A stretch of DNA of 56,938 nucleotides, the filler included, from Dugesia japonica (taxonomy: Eukaryota), in assembly GCA_001938525.1 (NCBI GenBank). It is 5 parts of 5 records of this genome, joined end to end, with 100 filler letters (N's around TTAATTAATTAA, not from the genome) between each part and the next. Parts side by side here need not be neighbours in the genome. Positions count along the whole stretch, not along the records: positions 1 to 8,835 come from MQRL01556183.1; 4 more parts are not named here. One strand, given 5' to 3'. Under the pieces are notes generated by a model. It was not told the origin of the DNA. It ran no database searches and was given only the letters and a program-made list of their open reading frames with translations. Both the position numbers and the translations under genes were made by a program. Shown here piece by piece: positions 1-47,731 of the stretch (its first letter is position 1; each line of letters starts with the position of its first letter).

Positions 1-980
1 TATGTAAATCAACGGAAGTTTGTAAGCATATGTGGATTAATTATGTATTTTATTATTGCAATGATATGTATATTTTATATATTAAGAGAATTTAGTGTAT
101 TAACATATATAGATTTCATTGAATTATTTGCGTTGTATGGACTTATATGTATTACGGTTAATTGTATGAACTGTTTTATTGATTACATTGTGTTTGTTGT
201 ACGATTTTATTGACTATATTGGTTTTTATTGATATTTAGTAACTTCCTTAAAATATTTTATGGACATTCAGTAATTTTTTAAAAATATTTTAGATCAATC
301 TAGTAAATCTTTGAAAACTTTTAATCAACATCATTAAAATATGCAAAAAACAAATTACATGTAANNNNNNNNNNNNNNNNNNNNNNNNNNNNNNNNNNNN
401 NNNNNNNNNNNNNNTAAATCAACGGAAGTTTGTAAGCATATGTGGATTAATTATGTATTTTATTATTGCAATGATATGTATATTGTATATATTAAGAGAA
501 TTTAGTGTATTAACATATATAGATTTCATTGAATTATTTGCATTATATGGACTTATACGTATTAGGGTTAATTGTATGAACTGTTTTATTGATTACATTG
601 TGTTTGTTGTACGATTTTAATGATCATATTGGTTTTTATTGATATTTAGTACCTTCCTTAAAATATTTTATGGGCATTAAGTAATTTTTTAAAAATATTC
701 TAGATCAATCTAGTAAATCTTTGAAAACTTTTAATCAACATCATTAAAATATGCAAAAAACAAATTACATGTAAACCGAGGCCATTATACTTGGGCAATA
801 CAAACACNAGTTAATTAAAGATAGAGCAACACGAATGCAAGTACACAAATTTATTACTACAAATGGTCCATTTGTGTTTTTATGATATTTTAGAGTTTAA
901 TAGGGTTTTCTAAAATTTTTATGATTTTATATGGTTCTTTAGGGTTTTTATAAGGTATTTATAAGGTTTTGTAGAATTTA
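1..980. repeat. Tandemly duplicated ~410-bp AT-rich repeat (1-364 and 415-774, around an N gap) plus flank; left arm of a long inverted repeat
   Basis: 1-364 and 415-774 are near identical (possibly an assembly duplication across the gap). About 500-980 recurs reverse-complemented at about 1895-2411, and 1-40 recurs inverted at about 1060-1100. Confidence 0.8.
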
Positions 981-1894
981 TTTGACATCCATAGAATTAT
1001 ATATATTATATTGAGTTTTATTGTACAATGTAAATATCATTTTATTAATAAAATACACAAAGTCCATATATGCTTGCAAACCTCGGTTGATTTACATATA
1101 AATTTCATTTATATGTAACACACCTCAAACATTTTATTTATTATTTACTGATAATATAGTATACTTGTCACCATTAATACATGTTTATTCGTTTTTAACA
1201 CCAAAGTGATGACATTGATCGTATACGATCCAAGAGTTTTCATGTATATTGAAATTTACATTAAACGTTTTATTTTAAATTTTATTAGTTTATTGATTGT
1301 ATAAATAAATAAAAAATATATTTGTCCTCTTTATTTTCATTTAAAAATTTTCTGGTCACCAACGATCGATTTTGTAAGTTATTTTTAACAAAAAAACATT
1401 TAATTCCGGGGTTAAATTTTATTGTTAACTCTCAATTATAAATTTCATTTTCCATAAATTGTCAATTTTTTCTAATTTATAAATTAACTGATTAATTTTT
1501 AATTTTAATAAGTGTTGAATTTCTCATACAGGCAGACAAAATTTCATTAACCACTCATTCCTATTTACGCGCTCATGATTTATTTATATATTTACAATTT
1601 AATTTTTCTTCATTTTAATTTATTATTAATTCATTTGTTTCTTATTTAGTATACCTAATAAAATTGAGTGAGATTTCAATTAGGATATCATATTAAATTT
1701 TATATTTTAAGAATTAAATTTTTTTCAACTAAAATTGATTCAATCTATTTTCAATATAAGTTTTCAACAGTTTTTAAAATTTTATTGTATTTTATTATTA
1801 TATTTTTATATTTTAAATTTTAAATAAATTTATAATCGAAACTAGTAATCATTAAAATAATAATAACAATAAAAAATAATAATAATAAATAACT

Positions 1895-2411
1895 TATAAA
1901 AACCCATAGAATTATATAAAACCATACATTAAACTCTAAAATATCATAAAAACCCGAATGAACCCTTTGTAAAAATACTTTTATGTACTTGCATTCGTAC
2001 TACATTGTCTTTGTTCTAGTTGCATTCGTTTTTTTTGCACAAGTATAACTCTCGCTCTTTGTTTACTTGCACTCGTATTGCATCATCTTTGTTTAAATCG
2101 CATTTGTGTTGCTCAAGTGTAACTCATGCCCCTAGATTACATGTAATTTGTTTTTTGCAAATTTTAATGATGTTGATTAAAATTTTTCAAAGATTTACTA
2201 GATTTATCTAAAATATTATAAAAAATTACTGAATGTCCATAAAATATTTTAAGGAAGTTACTAAATATCAATAAAAACCAATATAGTCATTAAAATCATA
2301 CAATTAACACAATACACTCAAAGAAAACATTTCATACAATTAACCGTAATACATATAAGTCCATACAACGCAAAGAATCCGATGAAATCTTTATACGTTA
2401 ATACACTAAAT
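1895..2411 (-). repeat. Inverted copy of the 500-980 repeat (foldback/MITE-like arm)
   Basis: For example ttacatgtaatttgttttttgcaaattttaatgatgttgattaaaatttttcaaagatttacta (~2138-2200) is the near-exact reverse complement of ~711-774. Confidence 0.8.
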
Positions 2412-2499
2412 AAACCTAATATGATAACTGAAATGAAATAATAAACCTAACAGAGCTAGTTACATCATATAATAAACCCAATAAAATCACTAGATCAAT

Positions 2500-2502
<3 letters not shown>

Positions 2503-2548
<46 letters not shown>

Positions 2549-2637
2549 TAAAAATAATAATAAAAATAATAANNNNNNNNNNNNNNNNNNNNNNNNNNNN
2601 NNNNNNNNNNNNNNNNNNNNNNATAATAATAATAATA
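2503..2637. repeat. (AAT)n microsatellite spanning an N gap
   Basis: Seen directly; explains the poly-Ile ORF 2490-2702. Confidence 0.95.
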
Positions 2638-4097
2638 AAAAATATTAAACTAATAAATATGGTATTCATATTTCGATTGCTAATTGTTGTTACAGAATTC
2701 AAATTAAATAATAAAATTATAAAAAATTGTCATAACATTAGTTTTGATTTGAATATTCTATTGTAAATACGAAACTAACCAAGTAAACTGAGAAAATTAT
2801 AAAATTAATTTTACAAAAATTGATAAAAACTATTGTCTAATTCAATTGAACTGAACAAAATTAAAATTTTCGACATTAATAATGAATAAGCGTTTCTATA
2901 GTTAACAGAAAATATTTTTAAAAAAAAAGTGACAAAAGATATTTCTCGCTTCCAATAAAACTCTATATAAAAAGCTGGAAGTTTTCTTTTATATTCGTAT
3001 TTCCATATATAATTCGATTTGGGAAGTGATAACTCATTAGTTATGACATACTAATTCAATAATAAACTGCATATTGAATTTGGTAGCTGGAATTACGACA
3101 TTAATTAATCATTGAAGAGAGAAGTTTCTTTTTATCAGAAATGACAGCTTTTTTTAGGAATACAACAGTAATTTTCCATCAAGAACTTCAATATTTTATT
3201 ATCGTTTATCGCCAACTTCAATAAAGTTCTGTTTCTATTTAATACACAGTATTCAATATCTCAACAACATTTGAAGAAAATTGACAACTTACAATTGTGT
3301 ACTTCGCTTTTGTTATTTGTTATGAGGAGTAATATTTTTTTACATGTTTCATTGTTTTTGTTAACTTATAACAATTTCTTTTAGTATAATCGTATCCAAT
3401 GAAATGTTTGAAGTAATTAATTTTTGTGGAATTCTTTGGTTTTTTTTTCGATAATTATTTTTATTTTGATAATATTTTCCACATTATTTTAACTAGGGCT
3501 TATTTTTGAGGAGGGTTTATATTCCGAAAAAGACGGTATCACTATATAAAGATTAAAAAGCAAGTACCATAACATAATTTATACCTTTATGTTACAGATA
3601 TTAACATTAAATTACACCTATATTAGTTTATTTAAAATCTTCCTACTTTGAAAATTCTTAACAATTAATTTTAATTTAATAACAAAGGCTTTTGAAGTTT
3701 CTTGTGGCAGCAATTAACAATTTTATTATTAACAAAGCCATGAAAATGAACTTTTAAGTCTTCAACCAGACTTGGTAAACTCGGTTCAGAAATTCGAAAA
3801 ACTATGGAAAGATCACTAATAAAGATAAAGAAACGAAATAATTTTTGGAAGAAGCGGATTAAACTTATAACAACAACACTCATAAAATTTTGCCTAGACG
3901 GTTTTAACATCAGTTATGAAAGAGATATTATTGCGTCAATATGAAATTATATTCCTATGATGATAAAGTATGGTAATATTGCTGAGAATTTTAAAAATCG
4001 AGTTCATGTTTTGGTTATATATATATATATATATATAAGTAGATATAGGTAGTTACTATCCTAGTCACGTAGTCAAATGCAATATTTTAGATTTATT

Positions 4098-4475
4098 AAA
4101 AAGTGCCATTTTAAGCGAAGCCGCAATATGGCAACTTATGACAAGATTTCAATGTAAAATGTAATAAAATATAGTAAAAAGAGTGTAATATAATAATAAA
4201 AATACCATTTTAGCAAAACCGCAATATGGTGACTCATTACAAGATTTAAATTAAAAATGTAATGATTTAAAAATAAAATGCCATATTTGGCAAATTATTA
4301 CCAATTTTACTACTTTCCCCATAGGGAAGTAACGATCTTGGACAGGTAGTCAACTCAGAAATACTGCTATTATTATTACTACTGATTAATGATTATTAGT
4401 AGTAATTATCAGTAGTAATGATTATTATTACTGATTAATGATTATTATCAGTAGTAATTATCAGTAGTAATTATC

Positions 4476-4524
<49 letters not shown>

Positions 4525-4584
4525 AAAAATATTATGATTACCCCCCCACCTATAGGAAAGTAGCGATCTTGGACAGGTAGTCAA
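4098..4584 (+). repeat. Repeat-rich region upstream of pPolB, probable Polinton terminal/sub-terminal region: ~65-bp direct repeats (4098-4165, 4198-4263), 33-bp direct repeats (4321-4353, 4552-4584), TAC/AGT hairpins and (AGT)16 at 4476-4523
   Basis: ATAGGGAAGTAACGATCTTGGACAGGTAGTCAA vs ATAGGAAAGTAGCGATCTTGGACAGGTAGTCAA (2 mismatches); ATTACTACTGAT/ATCAGTAGTAAT inverted pair. Polinton termini are known to begin with short AG/AGT tandem repeats. The assignment as a terminus is inference. Confidence 0.55.
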
Positions 4585-4649
4585 TCCTAATTTTCATAAA
4601 ATATTTTAAAGAGGTAATAAGAGGTGTGAGTAAATTTATCCTATAGAAA

Positions 4650-5852
4650 ATGGCTACAGCATTAACTACACTAAGAACAATACCACTTAAATGTTGGAAA
4701 TGTAAATTAAGTTTTAAAAATGCCACAGGGTTATTAAGTCATCTTAAATCAAAATCATGTACAAGACCTAAAGATAAAAATTTTAGTTGTGAAAAATGTT
4801 TGAAAAGATTTGAAANAGAATCTGGATTAATGAAGCATAAAAAGTCATCAAAATGTTGGAATCCAATTGATGTGAGTTTACGTTGTGACATTTGTAATAA
4901 AACTTTCAAAAGACAAGATCAAGCTAAAATACATTTTAATGGGGATGAACATAAAAATAAAGTTAGAAGAAATCTACAATTACAACAAATTCAACAATTA
5001 CAACAACAACAAGAAAATGAACTTGAAGTACCCGAACCCGAACCATCAATAACACCAACATTGGAAAATTTATTTAACATTGAAGCATATAATGATTTTG
5101 AAATTCAAATTGGATTAAATTCAATATTGATAATGACAAAGGATATTAGTGAAAGAAATTCACAATCAATTTTGGATTTTCGGCAAGAGATTACAACTAT
5201 TGCAAAAAAAGTTTATGAGAGTCAGGGTAAATACAAATTCCGAATAGTTGCAAATGGAGTATATAGTAAAGAAACTGCCACAGCTGTTTTCCATTCTTAT
5301 TCTAATAATAATATTGTTTATATAAAAAGGAAAATTCCAAATGTTGTAGAGATGGCACTAAAAAATTTACAAANATTTATTAGACATGAAGCTAGAAATG
5401 AATCAAATTGGAATTTAGATTATATTAGAGATTATACAATTGAATTTGTGAGATATGAATCAACAGTTGGGGGTACATATCGAGAATTACCATTTGTAAA
5501 AAATGGGTTAGTTAATATAAAAAATAATGATGATAACTGTTTCTTATATTCCGTATTGGCGCATAGGCATCTAATAAATCTTCATCCAGAACGTGTAAGT
5601 AATTACAAACCATATTTATCAGAATTAATAATAAAAGATTTAAAATTTCCAATGGAAATAGATGATATAAAAAAATTTGAAAAATTAAATAATTGGGAAA
5701 TAAATGTTTTTGAATTAGATAGAAATCAAAAAATAACACCACTTAGAATTAAACATTTTGAGACAAAAACCAATTCTGAAGAAAATAAATGTAATTTACT
5801 AATTTATAAAAATCATTATCTATTATGTAGAGATGTTAATGTTTTTGCATGA
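4650..5852 (+). CDS. N-terminal part of a Polinton/adintovirus-type protein-primed DNA polymerase B: three C2H2-type zinc fingers, Gln/Glu-Pro linker and conserved pPolB N-terminal domain
   Basis: CWKC..F.....L..H, CEKC..F.....L..H and CDIC..F......IH....H fingers. GGTYRELP...LVNIKNNDDNCFLYSVLAH and LKFPMEIDDIKKFEKLN..EINVF...CNLLIYKNHY match the N-terminal region of animal Polinton-type PolBs. Ends at TGA 5850-5852, just before an A10 run. Confidence 0.85.
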   Translation: MATALTTLRTIPLKCWKCKLSFKNATGLLSHLKSKSCTRPKDKNFSCEKCLKRFEXESGLMKHKKSSKCWNPIDVSLRCDICNKTFKRQDQAKIHFNGDEHKNKVRRNLQLQQIQQLQQQQENELEVPEPEPSITPTLENLFNIEAYNDFEIQIGLNSILIMTKDISERNSQSILDFRQEITTIAKKVYESQGKYKFRIVANGVYSKETATAVFHSYSNNNIVYIKRKIPNVVEMALKNLQXFIRHEARNESNWNLDYIRDYTIEFVRYESTVGGTYRELPFVKNGLVNIKNNDDNCFLYSVLAHRHLINLHPERVSNYKPYLSELIIKDLKFPMEIDDIKKFEKLNNWEINVFELDRNQKITPLRIKHFETKTNSEENKCNLLIYKNHYLLCRDVNVFA

Positions 5853-5866
5853 AATAAAAAAAAAAT

Positions 5867-7786
5867 TTGTGTTTAGGTTGTATGAATGTTTATCATAGTA
5901 AAAAATTATTAGAAAAACATCAAACAGAATGCATCCACCATGAACCCGCAAAAGTTTCATTTCCACATGATGATTATTATGAATTTAAAGATTTTGATTA
6001 TATGAATAAAGTTCCATTTGCACTTTATGCGGATTATGAAACTTACACTGATACCACCACTAAAAAACATAAACCATTATGTTTAGGAATTCAAATTGTA
6101 AGTGCATATCCAGATTTAATCCAAAATAGGTATATTAGATTTACGGGTGAAGATCTTATTGAAAAATTTTTTAAATTTCTAAAAGAGTTTGATGAACGGG
6201 TTGAAAAAATTAAGGAGGAAAAATTAATAAAAATTTACACTGGAACTGATCACCCAGAATTCATCCCAAATCAAGATTGTAGATATTGTGAGAAACCACT
6301 ACTTGGTAATGTAGTGAGTAGTGAGCCAGGTAGTGAGCCAGGTAGTGAGTCAGGTAGTGAGTCAGAAAGTAGTAGTGAGGTAAGCAGTAGTAGTGAGTCA
6401 GGTAGTGAGCCAGGTAGTGAGTCAGAAAGTAGTAGTGAGTCGGGTAGTGAGTCAGGTAGTGAGTCAGGTAGTGAGTCAGAAAGTGTAGTGGGTAGTGTAG
6501 TAGGTAGTGATCAGTCAGGTAGTGCAGTAGTAATTGATCATGATCATTTTAATGAAAAATTTCGTGGCTATGCACATCGAGCTTGTAATCTTAATGATCG
6601 ATCAATAAAAAATTTATTCGTCCCACTTTATTTTCACAATGGAGCCGGATATGATAACCATTTATTTTTTAAGGAATTAATGGCAAAATATCCCAAGGAT
6701 ATTAAAAAATTAATACCACATTCCGATGAAGAATACATTTCCTTCCATTATAGAAAAATTAGGTTCCTGGATTCTAATAAATTATGCCCATTCACACCAG
6801 TAGAAAAAATGGCTAAAATATTATTAAAAATAAAAAAATATCCAATTACTAAATCTCATGGATTATTCCCAAGGAAAGCTTTCTATCCCTACTCATATGT
6901 TAAGGGGAAAGATTTTAATGAGGTTCAAGAATTATTAAAAAGAGATTACACCCCAACAAAAGAAGATTTCTATAACGATTTAAAAGAAGCCCCAATGACC
7001 CCAAACGATTATGAACAATTTTTAAAGGACTACAACAAAATGAAAACTGTGGGGACCCAGACAATAAAGAAATTTAAAAATATATTAGAATACACCCTTT
7101 ATTACAATAGGTTGGACGTCACCATCCTAGCTGATTTTATAGAAATACTTAGGGATAATTCTCTAAAGTATTATAAAATAGATCCGTGCTATTGTTATAC
7201 AGCCCCAAGCTTAACGTGGAAAGCAGGAATGAGATTTACTAAAGCAAAACTAAAATATGCGAAACCATGGACTTATGATATATTTTTAATGATAGAACGA
7301 GGGATTCGTGGGGGCTATTCCGGATTATGCGGTAGCAGATTGGTATTGCCATTTAGGAATAAATCACTATATAAAATGTTTACTAAAGATCAAGTAGAAG
7401 AAATGCGAAAGGCGGCACGTCAAGGAAAATCAATAGATCATTATTTTAGAGAATCATTTTTAAAATACATTGATGCAAATTCATTATATGCAAGTGCAAT
7501 GATAATGGCATTATCAACAGGTGAAATAACTATGTCTCCAAATTTAATGTATGAACCTTCAACTGAGACAATGAATTATCTTTATGAAGTTGACTTAGAA
7601 TACCCACCAGAAATTCATAATAAGACATTTGATTATCCATTGGCTCCAGAAATATTAAATATTAGAGAAGACATGTTAGGTCCTTATCAAAAATCATTTA
7701 AAAAGAAATTACCAAAAGAAAATAAAAAACTTACATTAAATCAATATGATAAAAAAAATTATGTTGTCCTTGGTTCAACACTAGAT
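5867..7786 (+). CDS. Protein-primed DNA polymerase B, middle part: Zn finger, 3'-5' exonuclease, endonuclease-VII-like insertion and polymerase motif A
   Basis: CLGC...H...C finger; ExoI LYADYETY; EndoVII-like CRYC...DHDH...FRGYAHRACN; ExoII YFHNGAGYDNH; ExoIII YNRLDV; ERGIRGG; motif A YIDANSLYASAM; YEVDLEYPPEIH..DYPLAPE. Runs into the N gap 7787-8046, which would contain motif B. Confidence 0.92.
6311..6526 (+). repeat. In-frame coding minisatellite (GGTAGTGAGTCA/CCA 12-mer and AGT-derived units) encoding ~72 aa of SE(P/S)G repeats
   Basis: Seen directly. It lies between CRYCEKPL and VIDHDH of the EndoVII-like domain and the reading frame is preserved. Confidence 0.95.
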
Positions 7787-8048
7787 NNNNNNNNNNNNNN
7801 NNNNNNNNNNNNNNNNNNNNNNNNNNNNNNNNNNNNNNNNNNNNNNNNNNNNNNNNNNNNNNNNNNNNNNNNNNNNNNNNNNNNNNNNNNNNNNNNNNNN
7901 NNNNNNNNNNNNNNNNNNNNNNNNNNNNNNNNNNNNNNNNNNNNNNNNNNNNNNNNNNNNNNNNNNNNNNNNNNNNNNNNNNNNNNNNNNNNNNNNNNNN
8001 NNNNNNNNNNNNNNNNNNNNNNNNNNNNNNNNNNNNNNNNNNNNNNTT

Positions 8049-8252
8049 AGATGTAAAGTATTTACTAGGGATAATGAACAAGTTGCGCAAGTTGCGGCAA
8101 TGCATATGCGCAAACCAAATTTAGTATATAACAAATTTCAATATATTGGTTTCATGGTTTTAGAACATGCCAAGGCAATAATGTACAATTACGTTTACAA
8201 TATAATGTTACCACTAATAGGAAGAGAAAATTATAATATTCATTATTCAGAT
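8049..8252 (+). CDS. pPolB polymerase domain up to motif C (N-extein ending ...HYSD)
   Basis: NKFQYIGFMVLEHAKAIMY...HYSD aligns with NKPIYIGFGILELSQLHMY...IYSDTDS of the second copy at 46400-46642. The frame is open from the gap edge (RCKVFTRDNEQVAQVAAMHMRK). Confidence 0.9.
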
Positions 8253-8835
8253 AGTGTAACAGCTGACACCCCAATATTAATAAGGGAACTTGGTGAGAAA
8301 CCTCAAATTAAAATGATATTAGAAATTTCTGAAGATTTTAAAGAAAGATTAGATGGAAAGGAATATGCAGAAATAGAAAATTATGAAATATGGGCCCAAA
8401 GTGGATGGGTAAAATTAAAGAAAGTAATTAGACATTTTACCAATAAAAAGATTTATAGAGTTATTACAAAAATGGGGATCGTAGATGTAACAGAAGATCA
8501 TTCATTATTAGATGAAAATGGTAAACAAATAAAACCCGGGGATTTAACGAATGAAACTAAATTACTTCATAATAGAATTTTTAAATTACATAATGAGAAT
8601 TACTATCATGGTGTAAATAAAATAATAAGAGATAAGTGGAGTCTTGCAAAATTATACTACATGGGATTATCATTAGGGATGAATTTAATTATTGTAGAAG
8701 AAGATGGAGGATTTAATATTTTGGAATCAAAAGAAAATATAGTAGAAAATGTAGTACAAAGTGTTAGATTTTTAAGAGAAGGATTAGAAGATGTTTATGA
8801 TATTGAAACTGAAGATGGATCCTTTAATTGTGGAT
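8253..8835 (+). mobile_element. Intein (Hint domain; mini-intein with remnant of homing endonuclease) inserted in PolB motif C, truncated by the contig end
   Basis: Starts with Ser directly after YSD. Block A SVTADTPILIR; W..SGWVKLKKVIRH.T.KKIYRV; block B VDVTEDHSLL (TxxH); block F EDVYDIETEDGSFNCG. 194 aa are visible; block G and the +1 Thr are not in the assembly. Confidence 0.9.
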
Positions 8836-8935
8836 NNNNNNNNNNNNNNNNNNNNNNNNNNNNNNNNNNNNNNNNNNNNTTAATTAATTAANNNNNNNNN
8901 NNNNNNNNNNNNNNNNNNNNNNNNNNNNNNNNNNN
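8836..8935. other. Artificial contig linker N44-TTAATTAATTAA-N44
   Basis: An identical 100-bp construct with six-frame stop codons occurs four times in the window. Confidence 0.97.
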
Positions 8936-12235: not shown

Positions 12236-13206
12236 NNNNNNNNNNNNNNNNNNNNNNNNNNNNNNNNNNNNNNNNNNNNNNNNNNNNNNNNNNNNNNNNN
12301 NNNNNNNNNNNNNNNNNNNNNNNNNNNNNNNNNNNNNNNNNNNNNNNNNNNNNNNNNNNNNNNNNNNNNNNNNNNNNNNNNNNNNNNNNNNNNNNNNNAA
12401 ATTGATTATTCTGCAGAATTTGTGACATTTATTTGTATTTTTCTGTTACCATTGCCAAGTTGTTCTTTATTACTGATAAAAAATCCATTTAGAAACTATC
12501 GATTGTTTTACTGTTTCGTAAGAAGAAAATAAAAATCTATTCCACCAAAATAATCTGTTCAAAATTCATAGAAATAATCGATTTATTAGCCATCAAAAGG
12601 TTTATTGACAAGTTCTAAATTCTCAAGCCCCAATTGATATTTCTCGAATTTTATTAATTTAATGAGGGAAAACGCTACAAATATGGAAAAAACTGTCAAA
12701 ATTTTTACAATTAAAGTTGAAAATTGGGTTTTTTTATAAACAAATCAATTAAATTGTGCTTTATTAACAAGTTAATAATTAGAATATTAAATCTATTTTG
12801 TTGAAACNNNNNNNNNNNNNNNNNNNNNNNNNNNNNNNNNNNNNNNNNNNNNNNNNNNNNNNNNNNNNNNNNNTGTACAAAATTTATCGAAAACGCAAGA
12901 AAACAACGTTTCGATCTCAGTTATTCAAGCTGTAGTTATATCAAGAAGAATTATTGCTTACTGTTTTAAATGTTGAAATTTCGTATTATATTATCAAATA
13001 AAATGTATTTACCATTAATATCGCAATTAATTTACATCTAATTAACCAGTTAACATCAAATGTATTATTTATACATATAAACAGTTTTACATTATCAATT
13101 TGTAGATATTTATCATTATTATATTAACAAACAAATATTTTTATCATCAAATATTTAATTTAAAATATATTTTCAATTTAAATAACGAAAATAACTTTTA
13201 ACTTAC

Positions 13207-13653
13207 CTAACGTTTTAACATTATGTAAAAGTCCAAATGTTAATGGAACTTCTTTAATTTTGTTATTTGATAACAAAATATTTCTCAATTCAAACATAAA
13301 GCCCATTTGTGGAGGCAAAACTATGATATTATTATAGCTGGCGTCTAAATTTTTCAAGTTTTCAAGCTTGCAAATCTCTTGTGGAAGAGTATCAAATAAA
13401 TTGTTTTTTATAACTAATGTAGTGATAAATGTATGTGAACAAATTTTAATTGGAAGAGTTTTCAAATAACCTGAAAATAATTCAATTAGCTTATATTTAA
13501 TTTTTAAGAAATACCGGTTAATTGTAAACGAAACCAGTCACTAGTTTTTCCCTTTTCAATTTCTTCTTTAGTCATTGCTCGGCTTGGCATATTAAATTCT
13601 GCAGAACCATACGCATTTTGTTTACGCATAGATGATATAAATTCACTGGACAT
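13207..13653 (-). CDS. CNOT6: CCR4-NOT subunit 6 (CCR4 deadenylase), first two coding exons: 13653-13515 and 13470-13207, encoding the LRR domain
   Basis: Spliced translation ...MTKEEIEKGKTSDWFRLQLTG|YLKTLPIKICSHTFITTLVIKNNLFDTLPQEICKLENLKNLDASYNNIIVLPPQMGFMFELRNILLSNNKIKEVPLTFGLLHNVKTLG follows the CNOT6 N-terminus pattern (MS.EE...GK.S.W..L.I.G + LRRs ending LQTLG). 44-nt GT..AG phase-1 intron at 13514-13471; GTAAGT donor at 13206. Nuclease exons were not located. Confidence 0.8.
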
Positions 13654-16100: not shown

Positions 16101-16456
16101 AAACGATGTGAACTTTCTATAATTATATATGTAAACAAAGAAAACTATTTATTAATAATGAATTATTTAAGCAATCATTTAATATTAACAAATTTAGAAC
16201 TTTATATCATTTTTTAAATGAAATATAACTTTCCACATTGCTGTCGTTTATGTTTCTTTAAATTCTACTTTCGGTAATTTCCTAAATTAGATTTTTTTTC
16301 TGATTCAGTTAGTTTGGCATCCTTTATATTGTCAGCCTTTTTGTTACTATAATTTCTCTTATACTTGTTAGTTTAATCACTTTTCTAAATGCTGATATTT
16401 CTTGTCTGCCTCTTCCTGTTGCTCCTCAGATTTGTTGATTTAATGGCGTTGATTTA

Positions 16457-17872
16457 ATGAATAAGTTTATTTGTGTTTTAATTTTTATGGACATTGATGA
16501 TAAACCTTCTAATGAATTTTATTGGAAGAAAAAGGAGAATCCTTTCTACAATGATTTTTGTTCAAGGTTGTTAACTTTCGAGCGATTTAAAACCATAAAG
16601 AAGGTATTTAATGCATTCGANAATGTGGTTTATACAGATTTGGAATCCCAAAATATATCTCTTTCAAAGCTTGATGGATTGATCAAATATTTTAACAAAA
16701 GGTTTGCAGAAGTTTACGACCCAGAACGTGATCTGGCCGTAGACGAGAATATGTGCCCCTGGTTGGGTAGAGGTAGAAGTAAGGTATATATGCCTTTAAA
16801 GACAGTTAAATACGGAATCAAATCGAATGCACTTTGCAAATCTAAAACAGGATATGCGTGTGCGCTGATTCAATATAACTCTAGAAAACCCGAAAGCAAT
16901 TTAGATATATTATTGCGGTTCACCAAAAAATACCAAAATAAAAACCATCGTCTGTATATGGACAATTTCTACACTAGTGTAAAAGTTGTCGAGGCAATGT
17001 CAGGAAGAGGTACCTATTGTTGTGGAACTCTTAGGGATAATCGGGGTGGTTCTAAAGATCTTTAAAAAACCGTGAAGCGATTTAAAAAGGGAGAAGGATT
17101 GGTTTATACTAATAATTCAATCAACTGTATTGGGTTAATGGATAATGGTCCGGTAGCGATACTTACTAATATACATTCGAACATAATGGACAATAGTATG
17201 GAAGGTGAGGAGGAAGAGAAATTGAGCAAATCCAATGTAGTTAAAGATTATAATTCATATATGGGTGGTGTTGATTTAATGGACCTAAAATTCTGCTTCC
17301 ACATACTCAACATTGCCTTCCATAACAGTTATGTCATATATAAAAATTTAGTTCAGCTTCTCAGAAAAAAACTTATTTAAATTATCTAATTAAATTAATA
17401 TTTGAGTTTGGAGGGAATAGTGTTGCCGACTTTCCTGAAGAAGAATTTAGAATCATGACAGTAAATGCCCCACCCGCCCAAGTAGAACAGATTTCTAATG
17501 GTGAAGACAAAATCATAGTGCATTTTCCTATTAGAATCGAAAAACGAAAGCAATGTGTGGTATGCAAGATATATTCTTCAAGAACTGAAATAAAAACTGG
17601 ATATTCTAAATGTTTGGTTCCTCTATGTTTATTAGGTTGTTTTGAGGAATATCATAATGGGCCTCGAGAATAAAAAGTATTTAGTTTAATACTTTTCAGC
17701 AGTTTTTTACGATATTTTTTGATTTTAGTAAATATTTTAAAAAATACTTTTTTAAGCCCTATTATTTATTATATATTTTAATATTTAAGCCCCAATATTT
17801 TAAAAATAATTTTTGTTTTTAAAACAAATATTTCGACCACTAATTTTTTAGTAATAACCGTGAAAGGGTTAA
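16457..17872 (+). mobile_element. Decayed, 5'-truncated piggyBac transposon with right end ...GAAAGGG|TTAA
   Basis: DDD motifs AVDENMCPW, LYMDNFYTS and YMGGVDLMD; KYGIK; CGTLRDNR; C-terminal Cys-rich domain CVVC...KCLVPLC..GCF..YH (17455-17673). Frameshift at ~17060-17072 and a deletion after GVDLMD. GGG at 17866-17868 is followed by TTAA at 17869-17872. Confidence 0.92.
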
Positions 17873-21233: not shown

Positions 21234-21333
21234 NNNNNNNNNNNNNNNNNNNNNNNNNNNNNNNNNNNNNNNNNNNNTTAATTAATTAANNNNNNNNNNN
21301 NNNNNNNNNNNNNNNNNNNNNNNNNNNNNNNNN
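21234..21333. other. Artificial contig linker
   Basis: N44-TTAATTAATTAA(21278-21289)-N44. Confidence 0.97.
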
Positions 21334-34235: not shown

Positions 34236-37200
34236 TATAAGATAGTCTTTTTAAAAAAGATTTAAATTTTTTGTTGTTTTGAAACGGAATTTATTAAAAT
34301 CAAAAGTATATTTAAATTTGTATCAGGAAAATAAGTTATAAAATAAATCAATAAAATATAAAGATTTTTAAATAAAATAATTATAGATTAAATGAATGAA
34401 ATATGTTAATTTTTTAAATTGTAATATTAATACAATTTAAAAATCCAAATAGATTTTTAAATAAAAACAAATATGATATAAATTAATGAAATAGGTTAAG
34501 TGTTTAAAATGTAATATTAATAAAATGTAAAAATCCAAATAGATTATAAATAAAATAAAATAAAAAATTTCAGGAATGGATTATGGTTAGTGTTTTAAAA
34601 AATTTAATAATAATAAAATTTTAAGAATTTAAATATTTAATATTTTCCGTTTTAAATATGAATTTTTAAATTTGTTTGGTAAATGCAGATTTATGTTTAT
34701 AGTTTTTATTTTAATAAATTTATGGATTTGAATTCTGATGTTAATGATTAAATGAGTTTCCCAAACTCACCTAACATGGTGGCAGTTGTAAACACCTATG
34801 CGATCACAGAAAGATTATTGCCAAAAATATTTTGCAGAGACGATGATCTAGAAAAGTTTATTAAACGGTGTGAAATTTACTTTGAGGCAAAGAACATCGT
34901 TGTTAAGAAATATCAAGAACGTTGGGTATAATGTATGCTTTATGAAGATGTAATGGAAGCATATGTGAAGACACTGAAGAAAGCGTATGGATATCAAGAG
35001 AGATTGCGATTAACTTTTGAGAGCAAGAGAGACATAATAAAAATTTACAGAATCTTGTAAGCTATCAACGTGGTTATGAAAAACTTGAGGTTTTTTTAAA
35101 AAAAAGTGGAAGATTCAAAAAGAGTGTTCAAAAAAGTCTCATGTGGAATGTTGGCCTTGTCACATAAAAGTGCATTTAAGTAGAAATTTTCCAGACAAGA
35201 AACCACCAAAAAGTTTTGGGTGTGATAAGATTGGTAATATCAGAAGGATGTGCACAGAAGTTACATGCGGTAGATGTAAATCTAAAAGCGGAAAACAAAC
35301 AAAAGATTGAGGTCGGACAAAACCAATTCATGTCATTCGAGAAAGGTTTGATGATGAGAATGAAGAATTCCTTAAAATAAAAGGTTTCAAGGATGTGGAA
35401 GTGAACAAAGCAGAAATGATAAAAATAATTGAAGAGAAACAGATTGTAGAAATTTTATATGATACAATCCAAGGGATACCTAGCATTTTAGTCATGATCA
35501 AGGGTGAACAGTTTAATTGTTTGTTAGATACAAGAACAAGAATTAATGTAATGATCATGAAAGGATTTAGTAGACTTGGAAAAACAATGTTTGAAAAAAG
35601 CGAAGAACGATTGCATTGCTCTAATAACAGTTTATTGGAGACAATTTGAAAGATACGTGTCAAAGTTGTAGTTTCAGAGGTGTGCAAGAAAGTAACATTT
35701 ATAATAGTAGAAAAATTAATACCAGTTCTAATTAGTGGAGTGGATTTTCAGAATACTTTTGGTATCATCTTCAGAAAAAGTGCAAGGTAGACATCAATAA
35801 TCATCGAGATAAATTTGTTTGCAACATCTAGGCAAAATTTGGAAGGCAGATACAGACGGGTGAACGATTGAAATATGCAATGTAGATTCTAGAAATTAAC
35901 AAAGATCATAAATTGACTGCGATTATTCAAAATAATGAGGATGTATTTATGGCGGATAAAGGAGACATTGGATGTACATACTTAACAAAGCATCGAATAA
36001 TCACTTAAGGAAGTCCAATCAGCATAAAACCGTATTGCCAACTAATGAATCTTAAAGAGAAGATTGAGAAGGCCATCAAGAATCCATATGATAATGGTAT
36101 CATCCGGAAGTGTAATTCGCAATGGAATACGCCATTAATCTGTGTTTGCAAAAAGGAAAAAAAGTATGCGATTATGCTTAGACTTTAGATAGCTCAATGC
36201 AATAACAGAAAGACAAACTTTTCCTATGCCAAATATGGACAAAATGCTAGATGCTTTGGAAGGTACGCAGTATTTTAGCTCAATAGACTTGGGAAATGCA
36301 TACTACCAAGTGTAACTCAGTGAAGATTCCCAAGAAAAAACAGCTTTTCAACCAAACATGGGCAACTTTGTTTCAATAGAATGCCTTTTGGAATTGCGAC
36401 AGCACCAGGTACGTTCCAGAAAATGATGAATAAAATAATCTGGAAAATAAAAAGAGCGATAGTTTATCTAGATGATATTCTCATATTTACCGAAACAAAG
36501 GAGCAACACTTTGAAATAATCTATAATATATTAACAGAAATTAAGAAGGCTAGTCTAAGAGTTAATCCGGAGAAATATCAATGCATGCGAAAAGAGATCA
36601 AATCTTTGGGACACATTATCAGTATAGAAGGTGTCAAAACAGATCCAACTAAAATAGAAGCAATTAAATACTTTGTTTAACCAAAATGCGTTAAGAAAAT
36701 GAGAAGCTTTTTTGGAATTTGCAATTAATATCGAAAGTTTATTGAAGATTACTCAAAGAAAGTTAGATTTCTAGAACAGCTGTGTAGTGAGTCAAGTAGC
36801 AAGAAAATTGAATGGGCAAATGAATTAGAAGAAGTTTTTAATGGAATGAAAGAAGCACTAATGATTTCTTCAATATTATGTTTTCCAGATATAAATAGAG
36901 GATTTAGTTTGGACACAGGTGCGAGTTTTGATATGATTGGGGCAATACTATCTCAAAAGGACAACAATGGGCAAGAAAGAGTGATTGCATATGGGTCACA
37001 CGCAATAACGAGTCATGATAAAGGATATTGTACTACGCGGAAAGAATTGCTGGCAATTTACTACTTTTGTATTCATTTCAAACATTATTTGCAATATTGT
37101 AGAAGTGGATATTAAAGCTCGGGTGTCCAAGAGAAATTAGAGTTGATTGTGGAATAGCATTTGAGTCAAAATCAATGAAAGATTTCGCAGCTGAACATGA

Positions 37201-38063
37201 CAGTACCCTCAGGTTTTCAAGTCCCTATCCTCATAACACAAATTGGCAAGTCGAGAGACAGTTTAGAACTACGCGGGATCTGATTAATGCAACACCTAAA
37301 GAAAGGAAAACCTCAGATTGGGCTGATGTATTGTCAGAGATAGAATTTACCTTAAATGCTACAAAACAGAAGACTATCGGGAAAGGATCAGCTGAAATCG
37401 TATTTGGGAAGAGAGTAAGCAGAGAATAATGGTACGAAACTGATTTTAAAAAAGAGCACAAAGATCAAGATAAAGAGATATTGATCAAAAGACAATTCAA
37501 GGTTAGGGATGGGGTCTTAGTGAAAGTTAAAACAAGAAACAAGAGCCAAGATCGTTATTAAGGATCCTATAAGATCAAGAGGAAGATTCATGACAGACGC
37601 TACATTCTGAAGATACAAACGGAAAAAGCCTTGAAAGAAACGTAGAGAATATCAAAGAATTTTTTAAAAAGGGGGATATAAGATAATCTTTGAAAAACAG
37701 ATTTAAATGTTTTGTAGTTTTTAAACGGAATTTATTAAAATCAAAAATATATTTAAATTTGTATCAGGAAGATAAGTTATAAAATAAATTACTAAAATAT
37801 AAAGATTTTTAAATAAAATAAATATGGAGTAAATGAATGAAATATGTTAATTGTTGAAAATGTAATATTAATACAATTTAAAATAAAAAATTTCAGGAAT
37901 GGATTATGTTTAGTGTTTTAAAAAGTTTATTAATAATAAAATTTGAAGAATTTAAAATTTCTTTGGATAAAGCAGATTTATGTTTATATTTTTTATTTTA
38001 ATAAATTTACGTAGTTGAATTTTGATGTTAATGATTCGATGAGTTTTCCAAACTCACCTAACA
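34236..38063 (+). mobile_element. Internally deleted, decayed Ty3/Gypsy LTR retrotransposon with both LTRs (34236-34776 and 37677-38063)
   Basis: Both LTRs start TATAAGATA and end CTCACCTAACA. PBS TGGTGGCAG at 34777; PPT AAAAAGGGGGA at 37666-37676. Protease CLLDT, RT MPFGIATAPGTFQ/YLDD, RNase H DTGAS..IGAILSQ, integrase SSPYPHNTNWQVER. Flanks ACAAT/ATAAT. Confidence 0.93.
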
Positions 38064-46069: not shown

Positions 46070-47731
46070 TTAATAAATTATTTTATGATCATAAGGATTT
46101 GAAGATACTTTATTTTGTTTTACTATATAAATATTATGTAATTTTGATTTAATATCATAATTAATATTATATTGTAAATTACGATTATTTATTGCGACTT
46201 TATAATTATTCATATGTATTTCCTTATCAAAAACACTTTTACTTGTCCCTTTATTTTTCTTTTTCTCACTATTATCCTCATTTATAAAACAATAAGATTT
46301 TGATTTTAAAGCACAAAATTCTTTCATTAATTTAACTCTTAATTCATCTGTAAAATAACCAATTAGTTTTTTATGCTTAGTTAAATCTTCAGGAGTTACT
46401 TATAATTCTCTTATAGCAGTACTATTTATATTATAATTACTGAAGTCAAATATTTCTTTTAAATTCTTTTCTCTTATTTCTTTAAATAAATCATTTGATT
46501 TAATTTTAAATACCCATGAATCCGTATCTGAATATATTGGTGTGATATCTAATTTAGGATTTAATTCTTCATAAAACGCTTTATACATATGTAACTGTGA
46601 TAATTCTAATATACCAAATCCAATGTAAATTGGTTTATTCATTTGTATTTGTTTCTTTGTAAAGTGACAAGCAAATAGATTTTAATCAAATTGTTTTAAA
46701 CTTTTGTTGGTTTAGAAGTTCTTGTTATAAATCTTTCTGTTGTATTAATTAATTCTGTTTTTTTTTAATCTTATATTCTCCATTGTTTTTTCCGAAGAAA
46801 CCATTATTCATTAATTTCCACAAATCCTTCTCAAAGTCAGTTTTAGCTGCAGTTCTTTATCTTGTATTATAATATATGTAATCTTTTAACCATGGTTTTT
46901 CTCTAAACCACGCTACTTCATGTATTTTTGTTACAACCATTCCTCTTTGAATATAGTATTCTAGATTACAACGTAATTTGTTTTTGTATTTAAATCTAAA
47001 ACTAATTTTTCTGTTTTAACAAACTTTTGTCCTGATTGATTTAATAAATTTATTTGATAATTAGATAATTCATTTATTTTTTATCTTTTTTTCTGGATAT
47101 TTCCTTTTAGTTAATTTTGCTACATCATCTTTATATTGTAAATGAACTGTAAAAGCACAAACTACATTAAACTCGTTATTATGTATTTTGTTTGCTGAAT
47201 TAAACATAAATGGTAATGCTTGCATTGAATTTCAATTCATGCAATCAATTACTTCTCTCACAGCTTGTTTAAAATTACTTTGAGGTAAAGGTTGACTCAT
47301 TGAATGTCCGTATAAATTATAATAGAAAATTGTATTCTAAATACTCTTTAAGCTTAATTATATTTTCTCCACACATTTTAGTTCATATTTAATATATTTT
47401 GAAATTCTATTTCATCGGGTTAAATATAATATTCAAAATCTCTATAAGTATATTTATTATTTGCTTTAACATATTGATCTTCTAGCACCGTCGGGATTCC
47501 TACTCTTATACCTCTTTCAAAGAATTCGAATAATTCCTGCGTTTGTAATAAATCTAATGTAATTCCTGTGTGTTTTAAACCTTTTTTCCATTTTAAAACA
47601 GAAGCTAAAACAAAATAAGTTGGATCTAATTAATTTATTGTACTAACTTTTTCTATTGCATCAGACATAATATATACGTCTTCTTTATTATATAAGATTG
47701 TGTAATCAAGGAAATTTCGACATCTAAAGTA
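46070..47731 (-). pseudogene. Decayed Polinton-type protein-primed DNA polymerase B (C-terminal half), intein-less allele
   Basis: NFLDYTILYNKEDV (ExoIII), FERGIRVG, NLYGHSMSQPLP (motif A), FEKDLWKLMNNGFFGKTMEN (motif B), NKPIYIGFGILELSQLHMY, YSDTDS (motif C, 46534-46517), EFCALKSKSY, KKKNKG; many stops and frameshifts. Confidence 0.92.

Follow-up and report, generated by a model that had tools for sequence, protein, structure and literature searches.

The window analysed here is the whole stretch of 56,938 nt from Dugesia japonica (assembly GCA_001938525.1). It is a pseudo-scaffold of five joined records, and positions 1-8,835 are MQRL01556183.1. This first contig is followed by an artificial linker of the form 44N-TTAATTAATTAA-44N (8836..8935). 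There are four such linkers in the window, with the repeats at 21234, 38130 and 47801, and the DNA past the linker belongs to another contig. The first contig ends inside a polymerase gene, and any integrase, capsid, packaging ATPase and protease genes of the element would lie outside the window.

The likely left end of a Polinton element was found at 4038..4646 (+). It starts with AGTAG right after a (TA)n run and is non-coding with short repeats. The summed contig depth of three DNA-type runs was 19-51 over 4000-4161 and climbed to 1300-1800 beginning at 4648. The Polinton features used for comparison were taken from passages of PMC6431247 and PMC8097293, and in the latter AGT-type end motifs are given as a feature of vertebrate Mavericks. 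Of the terminal inverted repeats with an AG/AGT end motif and the 6-bp target-site duplication expected for a Polinton, only a candidate left terminus (the AGTAG at 4038) lies in the window, the right end being outside it. In addition, we found short direct repeats in the candidate terminus (4094-4165 with 4194-4263, and 4318-4353 with 4549-4584), an AGT microsatellite ahead of the polymerase start and, to the left of the element, a 410-bp tandem unit with an inverted copy (5-849 and 1886-2427).

The polymerase gene lies on the plus strand. Its N-terminal part (4650..5852) contains C2H2 zinc fingers (Pfam zf-C2H2, E 4e-9), shares 32% identity with the N-terminal part of two protein-primed polymerases (pPolBs), P0296 and P0219, and ends with a stop codon. 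The next part (5858..7786) is 33% identical to P0219 (E 1e-55). It includes what we take to be an ExoI-III-like exonuclease, an endonuclease VII-like zinc region and motif A (DANSLY), with positions read from the alignment. The N-extein (8049..8252), which covers the palm up to the Tyr-Ser-Asp of motif C, is 35-46% identical to Beta-like pPolBs whose sites are either empty or filled with an intein. Between the last two parts there is an assembly gap of 260 N (7787..8046) where motif B is expected, and residues 864-967 of P0296 are unmatched in that part of the window. The reading frame is broken in this copy by a stop codon and a frame change at about 5850-5860. An intron was considered for this break and excluded, because the matching part of the homolog P0296 codes for protein. 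Meanwhile, the endonuclease VII-like zinc region includes a Ser/Gly/Glu-rich in-frame 12-bp tandem repeat (about 6295-6529) that is skipped in the contigs of other copies.

The first-pass annotation had called this enzyme a protein-primed polymerase of Polinton/adintovirus type, and the comparisons agree with it. In the ESM Atlas, the product of 5858-7786 fell with DNA_pol_B_2 clusters (score 0.96, 86% Eukaryota), and in blastp the polymerase matched the pPolB-like proteins P0219, P0235 and P0296 (E 1e-55 to 1e-45). No match was found between it and the exteins of giant viruses. The assignment of the host protein as a Polinton-type protein-primed PolB holds. The absent pfam03175 match would fit the divergent Beta type described in passages of PMC8502044, where the Beta label is our own reading of the criterion of that paper. 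In addition, a second, degenerate, Beta-like and intein-free pPolB from another Polinton family of the same assembly was found at 46082-47731 (-). It has an empty YSD-TDS allele at 46517..46534 (-), and the 9 bases preceding it are identical to those preceding the intein.

The other contigs contain a degenerate piggyBac-like transposase at 16439-17670 (+) (DDE_Tnp_1_7, E 6e-33) and a degenerate Gypsy-like retrotransposon with RT, RNase H and integrase at 34750-37560 (+), the latter with a direct repeat on either side (about 34236-34776 and 37677-38063). A Pfam search with 117 further ORFs gave zero matches, and no recognisable host gene was found in the left flank of about 4 kb on the intein contig. 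CCR4/CNOT6 deadenylase exons were identified at 13181-13653 (-), with a 44-nt GT-AG intron at 13471-13514, on another contig than the intein. A homolog 83% identical to this CNOT6 scored 293 bits to the human and 147 bits to the yeast protein, the only two that were compared. From this gene on another contig of the pseudo-scaffold, the host genome is likely animal-like, on a thin basis.

The insert in motif C

The translation of 8049-8834 is a stop-free frame that reads to NIHYSD and then continues with SVTADTPILIR...GWVKLKKVIRH...VDVTEDHSLL...VYDIETEDGSFNCG, in agreement with the first-pass annotation, which had reported HYSD followed by intein blocks A, B and F in an open frame of 194 codons. 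The insert (8253..8834, +) follows HYSD in frame (YSD|S). It was claimed to interrupt catalytic motif C, and this is borne out by the in-frame junction and by the empty YxD-TDS of homologs. Block A provides Ser1 at 8253 as the N-terminal nucleophile, a residue found in 219/219 complete homologous inteins. Block B has TEDH within 8487-8504, and T80, E81, D82 and H83 (Thr80 and His83 being the block B residues) are invariant across 61 aligned sequences. Block F is VYDIET at 8793-8810, and its Asp183 is conserved at 90% or more in the same 61-row alignment.

The insert scored 29.9 bits with the NCBIfam model TIGR01445 (intein_Nterm), for which the cutoff is 24.5. Furthermore, an HMM made from 219 homologous inteins, with the window sequence left out, gave it 180.2 bits, whereas the best of 200 shuffles reached 5.7; no second significant match to this HMM was found in the six frames of the window. 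Pfam gave a different answer, for the insert had no intein match there (Intein_splicing included) and the polymerase pieces had no DNA_pol_B_2 match. A phmmer search of the PDB with the intein or the polymerase as query returned nothing significant. The GC content was continuous across the junction at 8252 (0.29 vs 0.27).

The contig stops at 8835, so the Asn of block G and the C-extein are outside the window, and the insert is cut about 8 codons short of where the terminal Asn is expected. In the homologs, the part that corresponds to the missing end is 8 residues long in 164/219 and 7 residues long in 18/219, while 37/219 were unmatched by the pattern. The earlier estimate of 7-8 residues missing past 8835 is consistent with these values.

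A full-length homing intein would contain a LAGLIDADG endonuclease, and about 150 residues of the inteins of P0006 and P0040, including this region, are missing here. In the alignment to endonuclease-bearing relatives, two short stretches at 8595-8678 (+) appear as remnants of the LAGLIDADG region. By this comparison, the insert is a mini-intein of pol-c type that derives by deletion from the endonuclease-bearing type.

The fold was also predicted. A single-sequence model of the insert had a pLDDT of 34, and the AlphaFold model based on the 61-row homolog alignment had a pLDDT of 89.8; the latter is built on homologs and so overlaps with the evidence from sequence similarity. In a Foldseek search of a viral structure library, the best matches were the PolBs of giant viruses (Pithovirus, Megavirus courdo11 and Heterosigma akashiwo virus; TM 0.88). 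In addition, the alignment profile matches solved inteins, with PI-PkoII as the best (E 6e-17). The insert is thus predicted to have a Hint fold. The view that it is a true intein gains from the TIGR01445 match, the score in the 219-intein HMM and the predicted likeness to giant-virus PolB inteins.

Relatives and origin of the intein

There were 1,004 intein homologs within longer proteins, 120 of them listed. In the profile search, 287 proteins were sorted by their exteins into 215 giant-virus-like, 16 pPolB-like and 56 unclassified; the pPolB-like set includes two from the window itself. All 219 complete homologous inteins start with Ser and end with Asn, and 211/219 follow YGD. An intein at the same codon was found in the pPolBs P0006, P0040, L001, P0142, P0185 and P0125/P0127. 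For instance, P0006, a PF03175 (pfam03175) type polymerase, reads YLD|S...KN|TDS, P0040 reads YMD|S...HN|TDS, and both carry LAGLIDADG_3. In the closest relatives (P0006, P0040, P0142 and L001), the intein ends with KN or HN and is followed by TDS, a junction that would lie beyond the end of the window contig.

Meanwhile, empty YxD-TDS sites were observed in P0179, P0194, P0219, P0235, P0241, P0245 and P0287. Some of these are close to filled ones. In the 60 residues that precede the site, P0287 (source name Mytilus coruscus; empty) shares 92% identity with P0006 (filled), and P0245 (empty) shares 88% with P0040 (filled). The window intein shares 61% identity over 108 aa with that of P0006, and the exteins of the two have no BLAST match at E 1e-3. 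Its splicing domain is up to about 50% identical to pol-c inteins of giant viruses and archaea.

Scans of viral contigs with P0001, P0006 and P0296 found no relative. The scans of metagenomes and prokaryote genomes gave 80 and 17 loci, and among these 97 only L001 encodes a pPolB. P0040, P0142, P0158, P0185 and P0259, from long ENA contigs of 8-761 kb, belong to a single LAGLIDADG-intein pPolB family whose copies are in fragments. These contigs probably come from another eukaryote in which the copies are endogenous. In addition, close pol-c intein relatives were seen after DQD in type II topoisomerases (P0060, P0061, P0063, P0072, P0077, P0099, P0104, P0105 and P0119), which suggests, from sequence, that the intein jumped to a non-allelic site.

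In the FastTree analysis of 220 inteins, the window intein grouped with those of P0006 and P0040 (0.936). The IQ-TREE set had 55 rows and 169 columns, with 48 inteins that were nearest or evenly spread and 7 pPolB inteins, 4 of them partial. In this tree, the 7 pPolB inteins formed one clade with moderate support (UFBoot 90) among the giant-virus pol-c inteins, with carrier pPolBs of widely differing types, and the giant-virus sister group of the clade had a support of only 56-71. On the extein tree of 16 rows, where a long branch (2.04) leads to the window extein, the intein label changed 4 times, and in 200 bootstrap trees it never changed only once.

The simplest reading of these trees would be that the intein entered once from giant viruses and then homed from one pPolB lineage to another; the direction from giant virus to Polinton is taken from the nesting and a midpoint root. 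A LAGLIDADG-bearing pol-c intein may have passed once from a giant-virus PolB to the pPolBs of Polintons. It would then have homed between pPolB lineages, and the endonuclease would have been lost afterwards in the window family. Without an endonuclease, the intein can spread only with its element, and from then on it would have been a passenger of the multiplying element.

Copies in sequencing runs

The intein stretch was present in 20 listed runs of 8 studies from 2014 to 2025. Nineteen of the 20 runs have one species label, and the shares were below 0.2 in 10/20; of these low-share runs, only those whose contigs were placed on the stretch are used here. Three DNA-type runs, each of a separate study, gave about 7,300-7,500 contigs apiece on 4000-8835, mostly 85-95% alike and with similar depth, where contig depth is not the same as copy number. 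For run X1, there were 2,182 contigs on a stretch of 789 bp around the intein with 85-100% identity, and 1% of them run on into unlike sequence. By identity, 280 of the X1 contigs were at 99% or above, 505 at 95-99%, 907 at 90-95% and 490 below 90%. The element is therefore dispersed and multi-copy, as is expected for a Polinton. Run X11 (organism B, from the study of X6) is not counted as a second species, for the depth along its 240 matching contigs follows that of X1 at a far lower level, and carry-over is possible.

The contig depth was high on both sides of 8252. Among the pieces listed (16 of about 2,400 in one set), none bridged 8252 by 31 letters on each side, and no loose end at 8252 was seen among the 14 listed of 145. 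There is a weak hint that empty alleles are uncommon in the window family. Variants at third codon positions accounted for 14/26 variant places over the intein and 8/11 around block B, among the 40 listed of 101 variant rows. The listed indels inside the intein were few: two places in one table, and two places in one contig in another.

No transcript was seen in the raw RNA reads of X21 (about 6% of the run) and X22 (about 25% of the run), where 1 and 7 reads were found, all of them partial and less than 90% alike. In addition, the run search listed no RNA run among the holders of the intein stretch. Run X7 has contigs over the stretch, and its RNA type is a guess, as it may be DNA.

Splicing, alternative explanations and meaning

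An insert of 194 codons with blocks A, B and F lies at the motif C site of a Polinton-type polymerase in a multi-copy element, and complete relatives have Asn|Thr ends. Taken together, it is probable that this is an endonuclease-free intein, in frame at YxD|TDS of a Polinton-type pPolB, in a likely animal genome, and that working copies would self-splice and restore the active site, while the window copy is a broken relic. Class 1 splicing chemistry is established. From this chemistry and the homologs, we infer that Ser1 would undergo an N-O acyl shift aided by the Thr and His of block B. The +1 Thr of the C-extein would then attack, with transfer to this Thr, and the terminal Asn would cyclise. 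In this way, YSD and TDS would be joined, and both aspartates of motif C brought together. An unspliced polymerase would have a divided motif C, and splicing was thus required in every copy that used its own polymerase to replicate.

The intein could be real and the whole family a fossil, in which splicing was lost, all copies are dead and an intein relic remains in an animal genome. The broken frame of the window copy, the 85-100% identity among copies, the lack of a transcript in X21 and X22 and the loss of the endonuclease are all in line with this. However, the catalytic positions visible in the window are intact, the variants around block B are mostly at third positions, and few indels are listed within the intein. 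Multiplication through the family's own polymerase would also need splicing, unless a polymerase was borrowed. Passages of PMC8532177 report that Polintons are silenced by piRNA in planarians, which would explain the silence if the host is a planarian. We therefore regard a dead family as unlikely.

An element from a protist, symbiont or free virus that was co-sequenced with the animal, and does not sit in animal chromosomes, appears more improbable again. There is no recognisable host gene in the 4-kb left flank, the window is a joined pseudo-scaffold, and the nearest inteins are giant-viral. On the other hand, the stretch recurs across the 8 studies and 20 listed runs under nearly one species label (even with the low shares in half of them), thousands of diverged contigs have similar depth in the three DNA-type runs, and the frameshift of this copy, the TA-repeat junction and the fall in depth outside the left terminus agree with an integrated repeat. 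The first-pass annotation had itself raised contamination or a chimera at 8253, and both are judged unlikely given this recurrence and the same junction in independent pPolBs. It is hardly credible that the insert is a Hint domain (Hedgehog- or BIL-like) that does not splice, or that a giant-virus intein and a Polinton were wrongly joined in the assembly. The C-terminal junction lies beyond the contig end and Pfam Intein_splicing gave no match, but both readings are largely refuted by independent pPolBs that carry this insert at the identical codon, with N|TDS complete at its end. In addition, an unspliced insert would part the catalytic aspartates, there is no break in GC content at the junction, and contig depth is high to either side of it.

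The self-splicing intein favoured here can be compared with known systems. Passages of PMC549080 describe the Mimivirus PolB intein as the pol-c allele at the YGD|TDS site, and also inteins in free invertebrate iridoviruses. The window intein is like the pol-c inteins of family B polymerases from giant viruses and archaea in its insertion point (YSD here), Ser1, TxxH, block F and predicted fold (TM 0.88 to the Megavirus and HaV01 PolBs). However, those polymerases are RNA-primed, whereas the present host is protein-primed and belongs to an apparently integrated element; the endonuclease is deleted here, and the gene has many copies in nuclear DNA.

Inteins in endogenous viral DNA polymerases are described for Klebsormidium, Tetrabaena and Honda, and in PolB paralogs of Anaeramoeba, in passages of PMC10710043. 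In those cases, as here, a virus-type polymerase brings an intein into eukaryotic nuclear DNA. Their hosts are algae and protists, a labyrinthulid among them, whereas the carrier here is of Polinton type and likely in an animal; the words 'polinton', 'animal' and 'metazoa' are absent from that paper. The window polymerase resembles the Beta-type adintovirus/Polinton PolB in passages of PMC8502044, in that pfam03175 is missed and yet it clusters with DNA_pol_B_2, with an AGT-type left end and many copies. It differs from the Polintons/Mavericks there in being interrupted by an intein, and the word 'intein' is absent from the paper.

Furthermore, HNH and VSR nuclease inserts are reported for pPolB2 of nematodes, oomycetes and molluscs in passages of bioRxiv 10.1101/2023.08.22.554363, and one sentence of PMC11071308 suggests that pPolB nuclease inserts stem from intein invasions. 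Like the present insert, these are mobile-looking inserts in a Polinton pPolB. No splicing domain is reported for them in the nematode paper ('Hint' 0, 'intein' 0), whereas the window insert has a predicted Hint fold and sits in motif C. Intein-bearing pPolBs are likewise not described in passages of PMC12220804, PMC3671162, PMC13768754, PMC5718144 and PMC9939771. A literature search, with supplements, most subscription papers and Repbase outside its coverage, did not turn up any account of inteins in pPolBs or Polintons. Inteins of free invertebrate iridoviruses being known, what is new here is that the host is a pPolB and that it belongs to an apparently integrated, multi-copy element; the pPolB intein group is apparently undescribed.

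On balance, we lean towards a wider reading. Polinton polymerases may host their own undescribed intein clade, which came once from giant viruses and is still homing between distant animal Polinton lineages, and within one flatworm Polinton family a splicing-competent mini-intein may have been carried into hundreds of chromosomal copies or more. True inteins would then live in metazoan nuclear genomes, and splicing would gate the replication of an animal transposon. A multi-copy intein in animal nuclear DNA would be an exception, reached by a route from giant virus to Polinton to chromosome, with the caveat that it resides in a selfish element and not in a host gene. The finding would imply past contact of giant viruses and Polintons in one cell, and pPolB inteins would allow gene exchange among distant Polinton lineages to be traced. 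Should the host be a planarian, the protein splicing of a natural intein would be testable in a laboratory animal.
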